Assembly: GCA_049303575.1 (NCBI GenBank)
Contig: JBAQNH010000002.1
Location: 83,984 to 147,983, forward strand
Length of the DNA stretch: 64,000 nucleotides
Reading direction: 5' to 3'
Source: Microgenomates group bacterium
Lineage (GTDB): Bacteria > Patescibacteriota > Microgenomatia > UBA1400 > MFAQ01
Part shown: positions 53,901-64,000 of the stretch, piece by piece
Layout: the number at the start of each line of letters is the position of its first letter
Position numbering within the stretch: the first letter of the stretch is position 1
The notes under the pieces: generated by a model
The model's database searches: none
The model's input: only the letters and a program-made list of their open reading frames with translations
What the model was told of the DNA's origin: nothing
Position numbers and translations under genes: made by a program

Positions 53901-53982
53901 GGAGAGTGGGCAGGACGGTAATGCGTTGGTCTTGAAAACCAATGAGCGCAAGCTCTAACAGGTTCGACCCCTGTACTCTCCG
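53901..53982 (+). tRNA. tRNA-Ser (anticodon TGA), class II
   Basis: Acceptor GGAGAGT/ACTCTCC, anticodon stem TTGGT/ACCAA with loop CTTGAAA, variable hairpin GAGC-GCAA-GCTC, T-arm CAGG-TTCGACC-CCTG, discriminator G. Preceded by TAAAAT. Confidence 0.8.
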
Positions 53983-53987
53983 CCTCA

Positions 53988-54072
53988 GGAGGGGTCGCAT
54001 AGTGGTCGAGTGCTCCGGTTTACTAAACCGGCGTATCGCAAGATACCGCGGGTTCGAATCCCGCCCCCTCCG
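53988..54072 (+). tRNA. class II (Ser-type) tRNA with an apparent anticodon ACT (unusual A34); possibly a tRNA-Ser variant or pseudogene
   Basis: Acceptor GGAGGGG/CCCCTCC, 3-bp D-stem GCA/TGC as in tRNA-Ser, anticodon stem CCGGT/ACCGG with loop TTACTAA, variable hairpin GTATC-GCAA-GATAC, T-arm GCGGG-TTCGAAT-CCCGC, discriminator G. Confidence 0.55.
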
Positions 54073-54094
54073 CATTTAAATAGTTACACAACTA

Positions 54095-57608: not shown

Positions 57609-58277
57609 TTAGTGAGCTAAAGCTAATCCCCAAACCACCGCCGCTCCTTTTTTCTTGAGCATCTTGGTGCACTCCCTCATATCCGCTCCGCTAGTAAAAA
57701 CATCGTCCACTAGCAATATCTTTTTCCCTTTTAATTTTTTCTTGAAATTTTCTCTAACCTCAAAAACTCCTTTTACGTTTTTTTCTCTCACTTCTCTCTC
57801 CAAAATCAACGACTGTTGTTTTGTTTTTTGTTTTCTTCGCAGCACCTCTTTTACTTCAACCTTCATTTTTTTACCAATCACTCTTGCTATTTCTTCCGCC
57901 TGGTTAAAACCCCTCCAATTCTCACGGTAAAAATGCAAAGGAACGGGCACTAAATAATCAAAGCTCTCCCCAGACTCAAACTGAAAGTTTTTCAAAACAC
58001 TCTTTATTAACTCCTTATTAAAATCAAATTTAATTCCATCAATTATCGACCTCATTTTTACATCCTGATAATCATAAATCACAATTAGTCCATCCATTCC
58101 CATTTTCTTTTTACACTCCCTGTGTGTCCAACCCATCGGCGACTCTCCCCCACACTCTGAACATATTTGATCAGCTATCGAAAGTTCTCGAAAACACTTG
58201 CCACCTAAATCTTTTCCATATTTTCCACATCCATAGCATCTTTTGGGAAACAAAAAATCAAACACCATATCAAACAC
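57609..58277 (-). CDS. comFC: ComF-family protein (phosphoribosyltransferase domain with an N-terminal zinc finger)
   Basis: N-terminal CYGCG..CSECGG. C-terminal PRTase motif KKILLVDDVFTSGADM. Confidence 0.7.
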   Translation of the reverse strand: MFDMVFDFLFPKRCYGCGKYGKDLGGKCFRELSIADQICSECGGESPMGWTHRECKKKMGMDGLIVIYDYQDVKMRSIIDGIKFDFNKELIKSVLKNFQFESGESFDYLVPVPLHFYRENWRGFNQAEEIARVIGKKMKVEVKEVLRRKQKTKQQSLILEREVREKNVKGVFEVRENFKKKLKGKKILLVDDVFTSGADMRECTKMLKKKGAAVVWGLALAH

Positions 58278-58395
58278 AAAACAATTCTAACCGAGTAAAT
58301 ACAAAAAATCTCCCCGTTAGGAGAGATTTTTGTATATTGTGGAGATGGGGCGCCACTTCTTGAACCATTTCTGTTATCCCTCATTTCTTCGGTAA

Positions 58396-58716
58396 ATGAT
58401 AACTGGCACTTGGAAAATGACAACCGTTGGCTTTTGCTTCCACCCGAAAAAAGTGATGGTCTTTCTTCGTATAATAGTTATAGTGACTATAAATACTAAA
58501 CCCAAGCAATTACCCAAACCGAAAGTGGCTGTTCCTGTTCCTCAGCCACGAATTAGGATACTTGATGGCGGATATAACTCGGGCATTTCGGGCTTTGTCA
58601 GCTCCCTTCAATCAGTCAATCTCAATGCTCCCGAAGCCTCACAAAACGCCCACTCAATAAGCGACAACCGAGGTGGAAGAATAGAGCTTGGCTTGGAGAA
58701 TTACATTAAGAAGTGA
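58396..58716 (+). CDS. hypothetical protein (first gene of the putative integrated element)
   Basis: ORF only. Hydrophobic N-terminus. Confidence 0.25.
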   Translation: MITGTWKMTTVGFCFHPKKVMVFLRIIVIVTINTKPKQLPKPKVAVPVPQPRIRILDGGYNSGISGFVSSLQSVNLNAPEASQNAHSISDNRGGRIELGLENYIKK

Positions 58717-58757
58717 GACCTTGAACCTTTCAGGATGAAGGTCAAGTAAGTAATTAA

Positions 58758-59192
58758 ATGGACGAAGAAACCGACATAATTTTCCGAAAAGTGGAGCCTT
58801 TCTTGAAGTGCGGTCTGAGCCTCCACAAAGCCTGTCTACAGGCTCAAATACCCAAAAGCACGGCATATGACCTATACAAGAATAACAAGTCATTCTCGGA
58901 AAGAATAGACACCAGTAGAAATTATTACTCAGTGCTTGTAACTAGCATTGTCACGAAGGAGCTTGAGAGGATAAGCTCAAAGCAAGACCGAGGTAAGAAA
59001 TTACAACCATTGGAAGTCAGGCTCATTCAATGGATAGCCACAAACAGCCGTTCTCTCAAGGGTGAGTATGGCGACGAGCCTGAGAAATTGGATGAAGAGA
59101 TAAAGCAAGACGACACCATTACATTACTTCAAAAAATAATTAACGACTGTTCTCGGAAAGACAAGGATACACTGGAAGAGCAACCCTCTTGA
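58758..59192 (+). CDS. hypothetical protein, possible HTH (terminase-small-subunit-like) N-terminus
   Basis: GLSLHKACLQAQIPKSTAYDLY resembles a helix-turn-helix. Acidic C-terminus. Confidence 0.3.
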   Translation: MDEETDIIFRKVEPFLKCGLSLHKACLQAQIPKSTAYDLYKNNKSFSERIDTSRNYYSVLVTSIVTKELERISSKQDRGKKLQPLEVRLIQWIATNSRSLKGEYGDEPEKLDEEIKQDDTITLLQKIINDCSRKDKDTLEEQPS

Positions 59193-59311
59193 ACGGTATT
59201 TATAATCATTATAAGTTGTCCTCTTTGGGTTGAGTTTCCTTTCTGCTTCAACCATCACATTCCAACTCGGATTAGCCAACTTAATACTTAGGTAAATTAA
59301 CTCCTACAAGG

Positions 59312-59905
59312 CTAATCATTAAGGTGTTGCATAGCGTAGTCTGCTTCTGCCGCTGTAAATTTACCGCCATACTGTGAAACGAGTTGGTCACGAACAGCTG
59401 CTGGTGACAGGTTCATAGTATCTTGGTAAGTTTTTGCCTGTGAGAGAGCATTTGCATTCCAATTTGCTTTTACATTATCTATTGCATATTGTGCTGCTTT
59501 TGGCGAAAATTTCCCGCCATATTGTGAAACAAGTTGGTCATAGACACCCTGCTTAGACAAATGCATTGAGTTGGCATATGTTGTTGCTTGGGCAAGAGCA
59601 GATTTGTATTCCGCTGGCACATTTGTGCTTGGTGCTGTTGGTGCAATCGGAGTGGTTTTTGCGGAAACTGTCACACTGGGAGTTGGTTGAGTAGTATCGG
59701 TATCAGTAGTGACGGTCTCGTTACTCTCGGTTGTTTTACTTCCCTTACCTCCACTTGCAGAACCAATCATACCCAAAATAAATATAGCCAAAATAACCGT
59801 GAGTATCGGATGTCTTGCAAACCAAATCCTTTGGTCTGACTGACAATAAGGACACTTCTTGGCTTTATTATCTATCTCTTTCTGACAAGACTTACATTTT
59901 TTCAT
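59312..59905 (-). CDS. Ltp-family (PF07553-like) surface protein with an N-terminal zinc ribbon and TM anchor; putative superinfection-exclusion protein
   Basis: CKSCQ..CPYC zinc ribbon, one TM helix and a Thr-rich linker. Two tandem repeats: QATTYANSMHLSKQGVYDQLVSQYGGKFSPKAAQYAIDNV and QAKTYQDTMNLSPAAVRDQLVSQYGGKFTAAEADYAMQHL. Confidence 0.55.
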   Translation of the reverse strand: MKKCKSCQKEIDNKAKKCPYCQSDQRIWFARHPILTVILAIFILGMIGSASGGKGSKTTESNETVTTDTDTTQPTPSVTVSAKTTPIAPTAPSTNVPAEYKSALAQATTYANSMHLSKQGVYDQLVSQYGGKFSPKAAQYAIDNVKANWNANALSQAKTYQDTMNLSPAAVRDQLVSQYGGKFTAAEADYAMQHLND

Positions 59906-60019
59906 TATTCTTGTTTGTTAATAATTTTTTAATACTCCTTGTCACCTACCTACTTCAAATTGTAATCCATTCCACAGTCTAAAAACAACAATGCAGTTCG
60001 GGGATGTAAAATCAGGGCA

Positions 60020-61561
60020 ATGGAATACTACGACCTTGATGTCACAAAACTAAAGTATGTCCTCTACCTTCGCAAGTCCACCGACGACGCTCAAAGGCAA
60101 GTCAGGTCTATTGGCGACCAAGAGGCAGAATGCTTTGACCTCCAAAGACGGCTCGGACTAAATATCGTCAAAACCATAAAGGAAACAAAGTCGGCAAAGT
60201 CCCCTAACAAGCGTCCACAATTCCGAGAAATGCTTGATGGAATAAAAATGGGCAAGTATGACGCCATTCTTGCTTGGAACCCCGATAGGTTGGCAAGAAA
60301 TATGCTTGAGGGTGGAGAAATAATTTATTTGGTGGACGAAAACATTATCAAAGACCTAAAGTTCGTTACTCACCCATTCACACCCGACCCAAACGGCAAA
60401 ATGCTTCTCGGGTTGGCTTTTGTCCTCTCCAAGCAATACTCGGATGACCTCTCTCAAAAGATTTCCCGAGGAGTAAAAAGAAGCTTCAGTGAAGGCAAGA
60501 TTGGCACCTACAAACATGGTTACAAGCGTGATGATGAAGGGTTCCAAGTTCCCGACGGAAAGAAGTTTGAGCTCATTAAGGAGGCTTGGGAGCTTAGAGC
60601 CGAAGGTCGTTCCCTTGAAGAAATAGCCTCCATCATAAACGACAAGGGATATGAGAGAAAAATAAAAAGAACGGGAGTAATTATGAAGGCAGACGCCAAA
60701 CTATTGAGTAAGCTTTTCCGAGACCCATTTTATTTTGGAACTTTGATACAAGCGGGTCAAACAATAAACCTTCTCCAATTTGGCTTTATTCCTGCCACCA
60801 CAAAAGAAGTTTACGAACATATCCAGTTGCTCTCATCAAACCGACTCCGACCATTCAATGTCAGGCGAATGACATTCTTCCCTCTTAAGGCAATACTGAG
60901 GTGTTCATTTTGCGGAAAGAATATGGTGGTGGCTCCATCAACAAGCCGAGGAGGAGGAAAGCTTTTGTATTGTCGTTGCGATACCAAAGGATGTCCGAGG
61001 ATAAAGAAATCGCTCCGAATGAAGTTTGTCTTTGATTTTATCTACGACTTTTTGGATAACAATCTAAAAATCACCGAGAAGGAATACCAAAAATATCTTG
61101 ATGAAACCGACGCTCTCAATGTAGAAGCGACAAGTAATACCTACCTTCAAATCCATACTCTTGAGGGACAGGTAAAAGCTATCACCCAAGAAATCAAGGA
61201 AAGCTCACTTGGTCTCGTCAAAATAAACTCCAAATCTCCAGCCTTCAATATAGTAAACGATAGGATTTCAAGCCTAGACAATGAAAAGTCAGGCTTGGAA
61301 GAGAAACTACGAGACCTCAGGAGCACTCTAAAAAGCCCCGAGAGTCAGAGGTTGGGTATGGATGAGTTCTTGAACCTGTGTAAAAATGCGGGTGCTATCG
61401 CAAGAAGTGCCACCGAAGTTCAAAAAGATACAATTTGCCGATATGTTTTCTTGAACCTATCTGTGGATGAGGAAAAAGTAGTGGCATATCAACTAAAAGA
61501 GCCGTTCAACACATTGGTCAAACGGCTCTTTATCCAAGAAGGTGGAGACGGAGGGAATTGA
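60020..61561 (+). mobile_element. large serine recombinase (serine integrase) CDS
   Basis: Resolvase-type catalytic N-terminus (VLYLRKSTDDAQRQ, nucleophilic Ser), recombinase domain, zinc-ribbon (CSFCGKN..CRC) and coiled-coil. The 3' end overlaps the tmRNA 3' end. Confidence 0.85.
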
Positions 61562-61935
61562 ACCCTCGTCTGAAATAATAAATCTACAATTTCTACAAGC
61601 TTAGTTTGCCGTTTTTCCATAAAGCTTCAGGCAAACAAGAACACTTTATGGTCGACTTAGAATAAGTTAGTCTCCAAGCCTAAATCACGCCTTGAAGCAT
61701 TCAATCCGGTGTTTTTTCGCCTTAAAGGTACCCCGGGATCCGATATTCTCTAGAGCGTCTCGAACTCGAGTTTAGGCAAAAGCGTAAACGGGAGCGAAAG
61801 ATTTGGCTTCACTTGAGGTGAAACCAAGTAACTTGTCTTCTTTATTGACAGTTGTATTTTGGTCTTTTTTACTCCTTTTACCAAAGGAGGCTTGCAGTTG
61901 TAAACGTACTAGTCCATCGATTCCGGTCGTCCCCA
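61541..61935 (-). ncRNA. ssrA: tmRNA (ssrA), about 395 nt
   Basis: 5' GGGGACGACCGGAATCGATGG matches the tmRNA 5' consensus (GGGGnuGAuucuGGAUUCGAcGG). Acceptor GGGGACG pairs with 3' CGTCTCC, giving a G3:U wobble, with discriminator A plus CC. T-arm GAGGG-TTCAATT-CCCTC. Candidate tag ORF GCC..TAA encodes AKSFAPVYAFA. smpB lies immediately upstream. Confidence 0.75.
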
Positions 61936-61983
61936 TAAGAACCACCTATAGTATATCAAATTCTGAGGCTAAAAGCAAGACTA

Positions 61984-62226
61984 TTAGGACCTTAATGTTC
62001 TAAAATACTCAATTTTCTCAGTCAAAGTGACTCCCATCATCTGAGCACGAGACGCAGCCATTACCACACCAGCCAAAAATAAATCAAATTCGTCATCATC
62101 CATCGCGGATACTTTAGCTTTTATGCCTTCTTGCCACTTTTTCAGGCTCATTTTCGGCGTAAAATCCTTACTCCATGAATAATTAACGATGCTGGCAGGC
62201 ATTACTTTACTCCAAAATAGGTCCAT
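61984..62226 (-). CDS. small hypothetical protein between smpB and ssrA
   Basis: ORF of 80 aa. No motif. Confidence 0.3.
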   Translation of the reverse strand: MDLFWSKVMPASIVNYSWSKDFTPKMSLKKWQEGIKAKVSAMDDDEFDLFLAGVVMAASRAQMMGVTLTEKIEYFRTLRS

Positions 62227-62236
62227 TTTTACCCTT

Positions 62237-62677
62237 TCAGTTAGTTAGTTTTAAACGTCTCGCAAGACCCAACTGACTTTCACGCTTTTTGAGTATCTCT
62301 CTTTTTTCAAACTTCTTCTTGCCTCGGACTAAAGCGATCTTCACCTTCACGAGACTGCCCTTATTATACAGCGAGATAGGCACGACTGTCAACCCTGCCG
62401 ATCTCATTTTGCTCTGAATCTCGATGATTTCTTTCCTGTGCAGCAACAATTTTCTTCGTTTGTCGGGATCATATTCCTCCGCACTGTCATGCCTGTACTT
62501 GGGAATGCTCAGTCCCAGCACATACGCCCCGTCATTCTCAAAAATGACTCTTGCTCCCAACATCGTTGCTCCTCCGTCACGAACACTTTTCACCTCAGCC
62601 CCACTCAATACAATACCGGACTCAAAATCCTCAATAATCTCATAATCAAATCTGGCTTTTTTATTCTCCACGATCAT
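62237..62677 (-). CDS. smpB: SsrA-binding protein SmpB
   Basis: ARFDYEI..GIVL.GAEVKS..KRRKLLLHRKEI..KGSLVKVKIALVRGKK are canonical SmpB motifs. Confidence 0.9.
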   Translation of the reverse strand: MIVENKKARFDYEIIEDFESGIVLSGAEVKSVRDGGATMLGARVIFENDGAYVLGLSIPKYRHDSAEEYDPDKRRKLLLHRKEIIEIQSKMRSAGLTVVPISLYNKGSLVKVKIALVRGKKKFEKREILKKRESQLGLARRLKLTN

Positions 62678-62697
62678 GGATATATTGTAGCAAGCAA

Positions 62698-63966
62698 TTA
62701 GTTCAAAACTCCTACTGTTCCCTCCGTCAACACCAGCAGAATGGTCCCGTCGTACTCAATGTCTGTTGCTGTCTTCAATTTTTCCGACTTTAACTGTTGT
62801 TCGCAGTTTCCGGTTTCTTTACTACAGACAATTACCACTCCGTTTATCTTGTCTAGTATTGCCAAGCCATTGCCATCCAACTGCACCGCGATTCTCGCCG
62901 TTTTTATCCCTTCCGGCACACCGTTCAAGGAAAACTGTTCTCTGGCTCCTCTCCTAAACTTTTCTACCACTCCCGACTCTCCCAAGACCCATACGTCACT
63001 GTCAATCGCCATATCCACGGGCACTACACTTATCGACTGACCCTGTGCTAACCACCGAACTCTGTCTCCATAGCCATCACTTATTGCTCCGTATTTATAA
63101 ATCTCTTTGTTTCCACTATCCAGTACATAAAGATTTGCTCCAAATCTGCCGATTGTCGTTGCTTTGCTCACTGCCATATCAAAAACAATTCCTCCCGTCT
63201 CTTTCCCGTTTACACTCACTCCCTTGGGACTCAATATCAATACTCTACTGCCATCACTGGTTGCATCCAACCACTCAAGACCCTCACCTTTTCCGGCAAC
63301 TACCTTGATATCCTTGGTCGCTGTTGCCGCCGAAACTACTGTTCCCAACTTACTGTCCGTCACTAATACACTTCCGGACTTTATTAAACTCATTCTGTCC
63401 CCCACAAATCCGGGTCGAACTAATTGAATGTTTACCATCTCCGCAAACTGGCTTTCTTTTTCTCCAGAAGTTATCGTCCACGCGTTATTAAGTCGTCCTT
63501 CCAAAGCTGCCACCTCATCCCTGTACTTTCCTTTTACAAACTCTGCTTTTTGTACATCAAAAGTTTTTCTTACGTCTTCAATCAATTTTCTTGCTCCAGA
63601 TGGATTAATCTTTACCAAATCCTGAGCTTCCTGAATGTTGTTCACTATTGGTTCGGAAAATTCTTTCCATTTTTTTGCCTCTCTATCGGCTTGAATTTTT
63701 ATCGACCCAGTCACCAAACTTACTGCTAATAAGATTAGAAATAAAACTCCCATTAAAACAGCCCACTTCTTCCTTTTTTGTCCTCCTTCGCGATCTATCC
63801 GAAGATCTTCCCTCCCTGATGGTTTAATTTTTCTCCACCAATTTAATAGTTTGTCTTTTGCTTTAACCGGCCCAATTAACTCTTCTCCGGCCAAATCTTC
63901 CTCTCTCTCCGGCCTGTAAAAAGTTTCCCTTTCTGCTTCTGGCTTTTCAATTATCTCCTCAACCAC
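62698..63966 (-). CDS. hypothetical membrane-anchored protein with a large extracytoplasmic beta-rich domain
   Basis: Acidic N-terminus, one TM helix (WAVLMGVLFLILLAVSLV) and a 300-aa C-terminal domain. No motif. Confidence 0.4.
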   Translation of the reverse strand: MVEEIIEKPEAERETFYRPEREEDLAGEELIGPVKAKDKLLNWWRKIKPSGREDLRIDREGGQKRKKWAVLMGVLFLILLAVSLVTGSIKIQADREAKKWKEFSEPIVNNIQEAQDLVKINPSGARKLIEDVRKTFDVQKAEFVKGKYRDEVAALEGRLNNAWTITSGEKESQFAEMVNIQLVRPGFVGDRMSLIKSGSVLVTDSKLGTVVSAATATKDIKVVAGKGEGLEWLDATSDGSRVLILSPKGVSVNGKETGGIVFDMAVSKATTIGRFGANLYVLDSGNKEIYKYGAISDGYGDRVRWLAQGQSISVVPVDMAIDSDVWVLGESGVVEKFRRGAREQFSLNGVPEGIKTARIAVQLDGNGLAILDKINGVVIVCSKETGNCEQQLKSEKLKTATDIEYDGTILLVLTEGTVGVLN

Positions 63967-64000
63967 AATTTCACTTTCCTCAGTTTCTTCAGTTTTTTCC

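Follow-up and report, generated by a model that had tools for sequence, protein, structure and literature searches.

The prototype Ltp protein, from the Streptococcus thermophilus temperate phage TP-J34 (PDB 4EQQ; PF07553), consists of a lipid anchor, a spacer, and a repeat domain; its target is the phage tape-measure protein, and it has been described as blocking phage DNA entry at ejection (PMC3952083, PMC5137146, PMC11480721). The interaction with the tape-measure protein has been described as electrostatic (PMC11480721). Other phage-encoded Ltp proteins carry no lipobox: those of Bifidobacterium phage BigBern1 (QIG78216.1) and Lactobacillus phage LR2 (AYN56788.1), both encoded next to an integrase, have an N-terminal cytoplasmic tail, one transmembrane (TM) helix, a low-complexity spacer, and two PF07553 repeats. 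Here we describe a gene of this family, ltp, in a 64,000-nucleotide stretch of DNA (the window) from a Microgenomates group bacterium (assembly GCA_049303575.1, contig JBAQNH010000002.1, positions 83,984 to 147,983). The gene encodes a genuine, ordinary member of the Ltp family and is carried, as the only cargo, by a 3.2-kb mobile element in the transfer-messenger RNA (tmRNA) gene.

The ltp open reading frame (ORF) lies at positions 59312 to 59905 on the minus strand, with its ATG at 59905 and its stop codon at 59312-59314, and encodes 197 amino acids; these coordinates agree exactly with those in a preliminary description of the locus, made from the letters alone. That description had proposed an Ltp-like protein, and PF07553 (Lipoprotein_Ltp) indeed matched the product in two stretches with an E value of 9.7e-42 (141.3 bits against a cut-off of 23.2). 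Two PHROG "superinfection exclusion" families also matched, phrog_4980 at 8.4e-55 and phrog_15667, the second at 2.2e-23, while 4EQQ was the only solved structure with a significant match (E value of 3.6e-22, residues 94 to 195). The protein was modeled with AlphaFold (AF2) on a 58-sequence alignment; this model replaced a single-sequence one with a predicted local distance difference test (pLDDT) value of 64, and it reached a pLDDT of ~98 over the repeats (residues 100 to 197). Foldseek superposed it on 4eqq_B with a target-normalized template modeling score of 0.94 and a root mean square deviation of 1.2 Å over 102 columns at 47% identity, which bears out the likeness to the TP-J34 repeat domain that had been anticipated; the second-best Foldseek match had an E value of >0.5.

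All four parts that had been read from the sequence (a zinc ribbon, a TM helix, a Thr-rich linker, and two repeats) were recovered, and this layout is far beyond chance expectation. Residues 1 to 31 (59813-59905, minus strand, as for the other parts of the protein) form a basic N terminus with a net charge of +5.5 and a Cys4 zinc ribbon with the spacing C4-x2-C7-x10-C18-x2-C21. Pfam zinc-ribbon models stayed below threshold for this region (DZR, E value of 0.0077); in the model, it shows beta-hairpin elements at a pLDDT of ~91. Residues 32 to 50 (59756-59812) make up the single TM helix, which follows a conserved W-F-x-R-H juxtamembrane motif. The best Kyte-Doolittle window (residues 34 to 52, mean of 2.26) marks the sole hydrophobic segment of the protein, and the model places the helix at residues 33 to 47. 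The spacer, residues 51 to 95 (59621-59755), is composed to 56% of Ser, Thr, and Pro, with Thr contributing about 31%, and is predicted to be disordered (pLDDT of <50). Ltp repeat 1 spans residues 96 to 146 (59468-59620) and includes the PF07553 stretch at 99 to 145; it is a three-helix unit with helices at 98-114, 118-126, and 135-144 (pLDDT of 98). Ltp repeat 2, the second PF07553 stretch, spans residues 147 to 197 (59315-59467), with helices at 149-164, 168-176, and 185-193. The two 51-residue repeats are identical at 25 positions, DQLVSQYGGKF included, and are visible in the DNA as a 60-nucleotide direct repeat (D2) with 77% identity and a spacing of 150 nucleotides.

Like TP-J34 Ltp, the window protein thus has two tandem three-helix repeats (47% identical to those of the prototype) behind a membrane anchor and a Ser/Thr-rich spacer, the latter a described trait of the family (PMC3952083), and its gene adjoins an integrase gene. 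The differences lie in the anchor, the repeats, and the carrier. The lipoprotein signal peptide with its lipobox Cys is missing, and all four Cys residues of the protein belong to the ribbon and precede the TM helix; the broader family trait of an N-terminal membrane-anchoring region (PMC5137146) is present in the form of the TM helix, so that a Cys4 ribbon and a TM segment stand where the prototype has a lipid anchor. Each repeat has a two-residue insertion relative to TP-J34 (SQYGGKF versus SF--DKY). The repeat domain is also neutral rather than acidic: its isoelectric point is 6.9 and its net charge is -0.1 (about 0), compared with isoelectric points of 5.1 in TP-J34 and a median of 5.3 among homologs, 88% of which lie below 6, and it therefore departs from the acidic repeat domain reported for the family (PMC5137146).

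To place this architecture within the family, we searched with the whole protein and obtained 681 significant homologs, many of them 55 to 65% identical over the full length; anchors and Cys residues were counted in the 120 best. Our own classifier assigned a zinc ribbon plus TM helix to 75 of these, a TM helix only to 44, and a lipobox to none. The CxxC-10-CxxC motif, with a spacer invariant at 10 residues, was present in 76 of the 120. Almost all ribbon-bearing homologs had exactly four Cys residues in the whole protein (73/76), almost all ribbon-less ones had none (41/44), and the W-F-x-R-H motif was found in 104. Because of this fixed spacing and confinement of Cys, the ribbon motif of the ltp protein is clearly to be taken as real, judging from the homologs, despite its subthreshold Pfam scores. 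Proteins with the same four parts, 55 to 65% full-length identity, and the N terminus MKKCKxCQxEID...NWFxRHP, from metagenome-assembled genomes (MAGs) and viral contigs, form the window protein's own subfamily; their genes occupy chromosomal or siphovirus tail-module settings, whereas that of the window sits in a serine-recombinase element at the tmRNA gene. NCBI has already given the name "Ltp family lipoprotein" to such proteins in Patescibacteria, Roizmanbacteria, and other MAGs, and for this lipobox-free subfamily the label "lipoprotein" is a misnomer. Literature searches turned up no description of Ltp in candidate phyla radiation (CPR) bacteria or of a zinc-ribbon form of Ltp.

Among viruses, 69 phage records and 304 IMG/VR contigs encode relatives of the ltp protein; the best 80 of the latter comprise about 20 with a zinc ribbon, 42 with a TM helix only, and about 16 with a lipobox. 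The BigBern1 protein is 65% identical to the window protein over the repeats. BigBern1 and LR2 Ltp differ from it in having no Cys and no zinc ribbon and in being carried by complete 40- to 44-kb phages, and the integrase beside BigBern1 ltp is of the tyrosine type, unlike the serine recombinase of the window. A TM helix in place of a lipobox had been singled out in the preliminary description. The lipobox is indeed absent, but the substitution is not distinctive, since most close homologs show it and BigBern1, LR2, and viral contigs have it as well. The closest viral copy (L027; IMG/VR UViG_3300031515_000003) is 56% identical and has the subfamily's N terminus in common with the window protein. 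Its gene stands alone on the opposite strand within the tail module of a siphovirus (L027 3592-8073; 27.5-kb contig), where the tape-measure gene is its immediate neighbor and Dit, tail-fiber, head-tail connector, and major-capsid genes lie around it. The product of that neighboring gene is the protein known to be targeted by Ltp.

The preliminary description had also set ltp beside an integrase in a CPR genome. Window proteins match those of a Microgenomates group MAG (704,398-bp contig) exactly, and the clusters that they form at 90% consist mostly of Candidatus Collierbacteria proteins, which bears out the CPR assignment; the proteins flanking that of ltp in NCBI records are MFZ3068903.1 and MFZ3068905.1. 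The integrase is a 513-amino-acid recombinase of the large serine type (60020-61561, plus strand), transcribed divergently from ltp. The 114-nucleotide intergenic region between the two (59906-60019) presumably holds their promoters; it contains a single, weak promoter-like match, on the minus strand at 59932-59904. The domain set of a large serine recombinase (resolvase catalytic, recombinase, and zinc-beta-ribbon domains) is present: PF00239 (Resolvase) matched at 3.3e-20, PF07508 (Recombinase) at 21.4 bits against a cut-off of 21.1, and PF13408 (Zn_ribbon_recom) at 21.0 bits, under its 25.3-bit cut-off, and the integrase family phrog_95 matched at 9.8e-56. The end of the recombinase ORF overlaps, antisense and by ~20 nucleotides including the stop codon, the 3′ end of the tmRNA gene (ssrA), which was found by ARAGORN and Rfam (RF00023, 116 bits) at 61540-61934 on the minus strand.

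Empty sites showed that the tmRNA gene is the integration target. A conserved 26-mer of the tmRNA retrieved two related metagenome loci, L013 (93% DNA identity) and the more distant L014 (on an 841-kb contig). In both, the tmRNA end "...CCCTCCGTCTCCAC" runs directly into an intrinsic terminator followed by a ComF-like gene, and neither the recombinase nor ltp is present at the tmRNA locus. By blastn, positions 1-185 of L013 correspond to window positions 58161-58345 and positions 179-2637 to 61542-64000, with an overlap of 7 nucleotides; the window therefore contains an insertion of 3,203 bp (58346-61548) between two copies of a 7-bp core, TCTCCAC in the tmRNA sense. The left copy (attL; 58339-58345, minus strand) belongs to the displaced native tmRNA 3′ end, which now lies at the far junction of the element together with the terminator (58304-58331, minus strand) that formerly stood just after the tmRNA gene, as it still does in L013 and L014. 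The right copy (attR; 61542-61548, minus strand) falls within the acceptor 3′ strand of the functional tmRNA, so that the junction completes the 3′ end of the gene. The insertion is thus discrete, has defined junctions, and is absent from relatives, as is characteristic of a serine-recombinase element.

A direct-repeat search of the window did not show the att sites because their common core is only 7 bp, and the alignment of the tmRNA end with the candidate remnant was weak alone and convincing only once the empty sites were known. Joining the element ends gave a reconstructed attP of GGTTCAAGAAGTGGCGCCCC[A/G]TCTCCACCTTCTTGGATAAAG, with CAAGAAGTGG and CCACCTTCTTG, read by eye, as putative imperfect inverted-repeat arms around the crossover; the reconstructed attB is CCCTCCGTCTCCACAATATACAAAAATCTC. 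An A/G polymorphism adjoins the core (G in the related locus L024) and leaves the CC at the attP dyad center and a site inside TCTCCAC inseparable as the point of crossover. In its layout, the element resembles islands of the Islander type in tRNA and tmRNA genes (principle in PMC7192596), with insertion at the 3′ end of ssrA, restoration of the gene, a displaced fragment at the far end, and the integrase gene beside the target. It differs from them in its very small size (3.2 kb), its serine recombinase, its 7-bp core, and a recombinase ORF that crosses the att site and ends in the tmRNA gene.

Only two other ORFs share the insertion with ltp and the recombinase gene: orf106 (58396-58716, plus strand) and orf144 (58758-59192, plus strand). 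No phage structural, replication, packaging, or lysis genes were found among these four ORFs. The phage-related matches of the element are those of ltp, the integrase, and orf144, a small helix-turn-helix (HTH)-like protein whose small-terminase-like matches stayed below threshold and which is a candidate regulator or directionality factor; orf106, likewise a candidate directionality factor, matched no family. Because nothing else is contained in it, the insertion is an integrative mini-element with a large serine recombinase and not a prophage. Of the "prophage-derived defence module" put forward in the preliminary description, the mobility stands, as the insertion is absent from close relatives; the phage derivation has its basis solely in phage-borne homologs elsewhere. 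In this respect, too, the locus departs from TP-J34, where ltp belongs to the lysogeny module of a temperate phage; the window integrase is a divergently oriented large serine recombinase, and its carrier is a 3.2-kb element.

One could still see in the segment the decayed end of a lysogeny module, with ltp as a leftover moron that is perhaps no longer expressed. The adjacency of int and ltp, as in TP-J34, and the weakly small-terminase-like orf144 would fit such a remnant, as would the truncation at 283 amino acids of the recombinase copy in L024 and the lack of transfer functions in the element. We consider decay quite unlikely nevertheless, given that both junctions are intact with a common core and that the recombinase ORF is full length. 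Moreover, the small backbone recurs at 84 to 94% protein identity in other host backgrounds (whose SmpB proteins are 68 to 83% identical) with other cargo in the same slot, and the frame across the reconstructed attP has accumulated six synonymous changes and one nonsynonymous change, which suggests selection on the excised form.

The recurrence of the backbone was seen in relatives of the integrative mini-element. Recombinases 89 to 94% identical to that of the window abut tmRNA genes in L005 (1-965) and L023 (487-2523), and remoter ones end inside tRNA-Pro (L006 7980-9630; 45% identity) and tRNA-Ser (L007 6964-8514; 31% identity). Over this whole range of identity, from 94 to 31%, the recombinase gene runs into or across the 3′ end of a tRNA or tmRNA gene that is convergent with it. 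This pattern suggests a clade of serine recombinases in CPR-like genomes that targets tRNA and tmRNA 3′ ends. A scan of viral contigs with the recombinase returned only one distant match, at 23% identity. Locus L024 (8565-10855) keeps orf106 (92% identical), orf144 (84%, at the same position), and the recombinase (94%, in its truncated form) and has, at the position of ltp, an unrelated 150-amino-acid gene that belongs to no family. In L023 (56-2028), the gene directly upstream of the recombinase encodes a 143-amino-acid protein with a C-terminal hydrophobic segment. Because these two loci keep the backbone with another gene at the position of ltp, that position is, on comparison of the loci, a variable cargo slot in a conserved backbone. 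The conservation of orf106 as a backbone ORF is also apparent from its substitutions, 20 of 28 between the window and L024 falling at codon position 3. No similarity was detected between orf144 and the ORF at the equivalent position in L006. In the tRNA-Pro element region of L006 (5371-6441), we noted a 356-amino-acid membrane protein with a TM2 domain, in which "NWFKDHRALS" and a TM segment, reminiscent of the Ltp subfamily's juxtamembrane motif, precede unrelated repeats.

The recombinase ORF contains the att core (window positions 61542-61561 and 58350-58499). In the integrated element, the 513-amino-acid recombinase takes its last three codons and stop (G-G-N-stop) from the antisense of the tmRNA T-arm; when the element ends are joined as a circle, the ORF grows to 560 amino acids and ends at 58499. 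To ask how the continued frame has evolved, we compared the window with L024. Over 58350-58395, all five substitutions fell at codon position 3 of this frame, and over 58350-58499 there were six synonymous changes and one nonsynonymous change; the peptide "...GDGAPLLEPFLLSLISS..." is also preserved in L024. The comparison suggests that a longer recombinase is made from the excised element. As an independent test of the split ORF, a displaced tRNA-Pro fragment was sought in L006, and none was detected. Two further features were noted alongside. Part of orf106 (58396-58499) would be read a second time, in another frame, as the predicted recombinase extension, and within this doubly coding stretch the window and L024 differ by just two substitutions. 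The T-stem of the tmRNA (61552-61572) differs from that of L005 by a compensatory double change, GAGGG/CCCTC versus GAGAG/CTCTC, which alters the recombinase C terminus from ...GGDGGN to ...GGDGEN in L005.

In cluster G mycobacteriophages such as BPs, attP lies inside a gene of the lysogeny module and integration changes the C terminus of its product; in BPs, it is the repressor gene that is split, and a tyrosine recombinase serves as integrase. At the window locus, in contrast, the gene that appears to be split is that of the serine recombinase itself. We tentatively picture an autonomous, minimal CPR element with an exchangeable one-gene slot and a recombinase split by its own attP, in which integration would replace the last ~50 residues by three codons and a stop and so switch the recombinase from one form to the other; this is a possibility rather than an expectation. 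If true, such an integration-dependent switch could set directionality or stability. Compared with ltp, the recombinase ORF that spans its own attP is the more novel feature of the locus.

How the ltp protein might act can be outlined from the prototype. A Cys4 zinc site is expected to need the reducing cytoplasm. From this requirement and the basic N terminus (positive-inside rule), we infer an N-in/C-out topology with the repeats exposed at the surface. The protein would then be of type II, held by its cytoplasmic Cys4 ribbon and one TM helix, and the disordered Thr-rich spacer would present the two three-helix repeats on the outside of the membrane. When an incoming siphovirus ejects its tape-measure protein at the membrane, the exposed repeats would bind that protein, and with the ejection complex stalled, the phage DNA would be kept out. 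Driven by the large serine recombinase, the element inserted into the tmRNA 3′ end, which it regenerates, and it probably spreads this one-gene anti-phage function among Collierbacteria-like CPR bacteria. By analogy with TP-J34, superinfection exclusion by the ltp protein is reasonably likely; the account as a whole, with a membrane-anchored Ltp protein that excludes phages and travels as cargo of a tmRNA element, we hold with a similar and very slightly firmer confidence.

Several observations weigh against exclusion. PADLOC, run on Ltp and the recombinase as well as on orf144, orf106, and the alternative cargo genes, returned no usable match and has no model that fits Ltp. The near-neutral repeat domain contrasts with the electrostatic interaction of the prototype, and the target range of the ltp protein may for this reason differ from that of TP-J34 Ltp. 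The four closest full-length homologs with zinc ribbon and TM helix that were examined in other genomes lie among housekeeping genes and have neither an integrase nor phage genes in their neighborhood, which means that not every member of the family is carried by a phage or an element. Finally, an Ltp domain occurs in a nondefense surface protein, pneumococcal CbpL, which is not a lipoprotein and contributes to lung infection (PMC5137146). The last three of these observations would also be expected if ltp encoded a general cell-surface binding module, for example for attachment of an episymbiotic CPR cell to its host cell or for envelope contact, with the repeats serving as a generic HTH-like binding unit. 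We regard such a role as unlikely. ltp is strain-variable mobile cargo that is missing from a relative of 93% DNA identity, its nearest viral copy resides within a siphovirus tail module, cultured temperate phages carry TM-anchored copies beside integrases, and CbpL combines, by fusion, a single Ltp repeat with other domains instead of showing the membrane-anchored two-repeat layout. The position of ltp as the sole recognizable cargo of a tiny element would, from context alone, also suit a protein that excludes other DNA (rival copies of the element, transformation, or conjugation-like uptake) rather than that of tailed phages. This we find very hard to credit, since the fold has just one characterized target, the tape-measure protein of a phage, and the subfamily is abundant in tailed-phage genomes.

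The interest of ltp lies in its context. As a gene it adds little, because proteins of exactly the same architecture are numerous and already annotated. Patescibacteria have been reported to be largely without CRISPR and to have mostly temperate phages as their viruses (PMC12911398), and a putative surface exclusion protein on a tiny mobile element is for this reason a candidate route to phage resistance in reduced CPR genomes. The precisely defined att sites and the family of recombinases ending in tRNA and tmRNA genes could in addition interest serine-integrase mining and studies of integration-state sensing.

Gene order around ssrA is rearranged among the window, L005, L013, L014, and L024, because the position of the ComF-like gene differs and a melibiase gene flanks the element in L024. 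In L005 (568-1792), the ComF-like gene lies 5′ of the tmRNA gene and is divergent from it; in the window (57609-58277), as in L013 and L014, its place is beyond the tmRNA 3′ end, on the downstream side. An ORF of 80 amino acids without a Pfam match is found between SmpB and tmRNA in the window (61984-62226, minus strand) and also in L023 (2573-2815) and L024 (7105-7347). In L023 (2007-2523), the Rfam tmRNA match spans 517 nucleotides, compared with 395 in the window, and ARAGORN finds none, which suggests a tmRNA with an insertion or an unusual structure. Elsewhere in the window, a tRNA-Ser with the unusual anticodon ACT (53988-54073; called by ARAGORN and confirmed as a tRNA by Rfam) directly follows a tRNA-Ser(TGA) at 53901-53984, and the same pair is present in L005.

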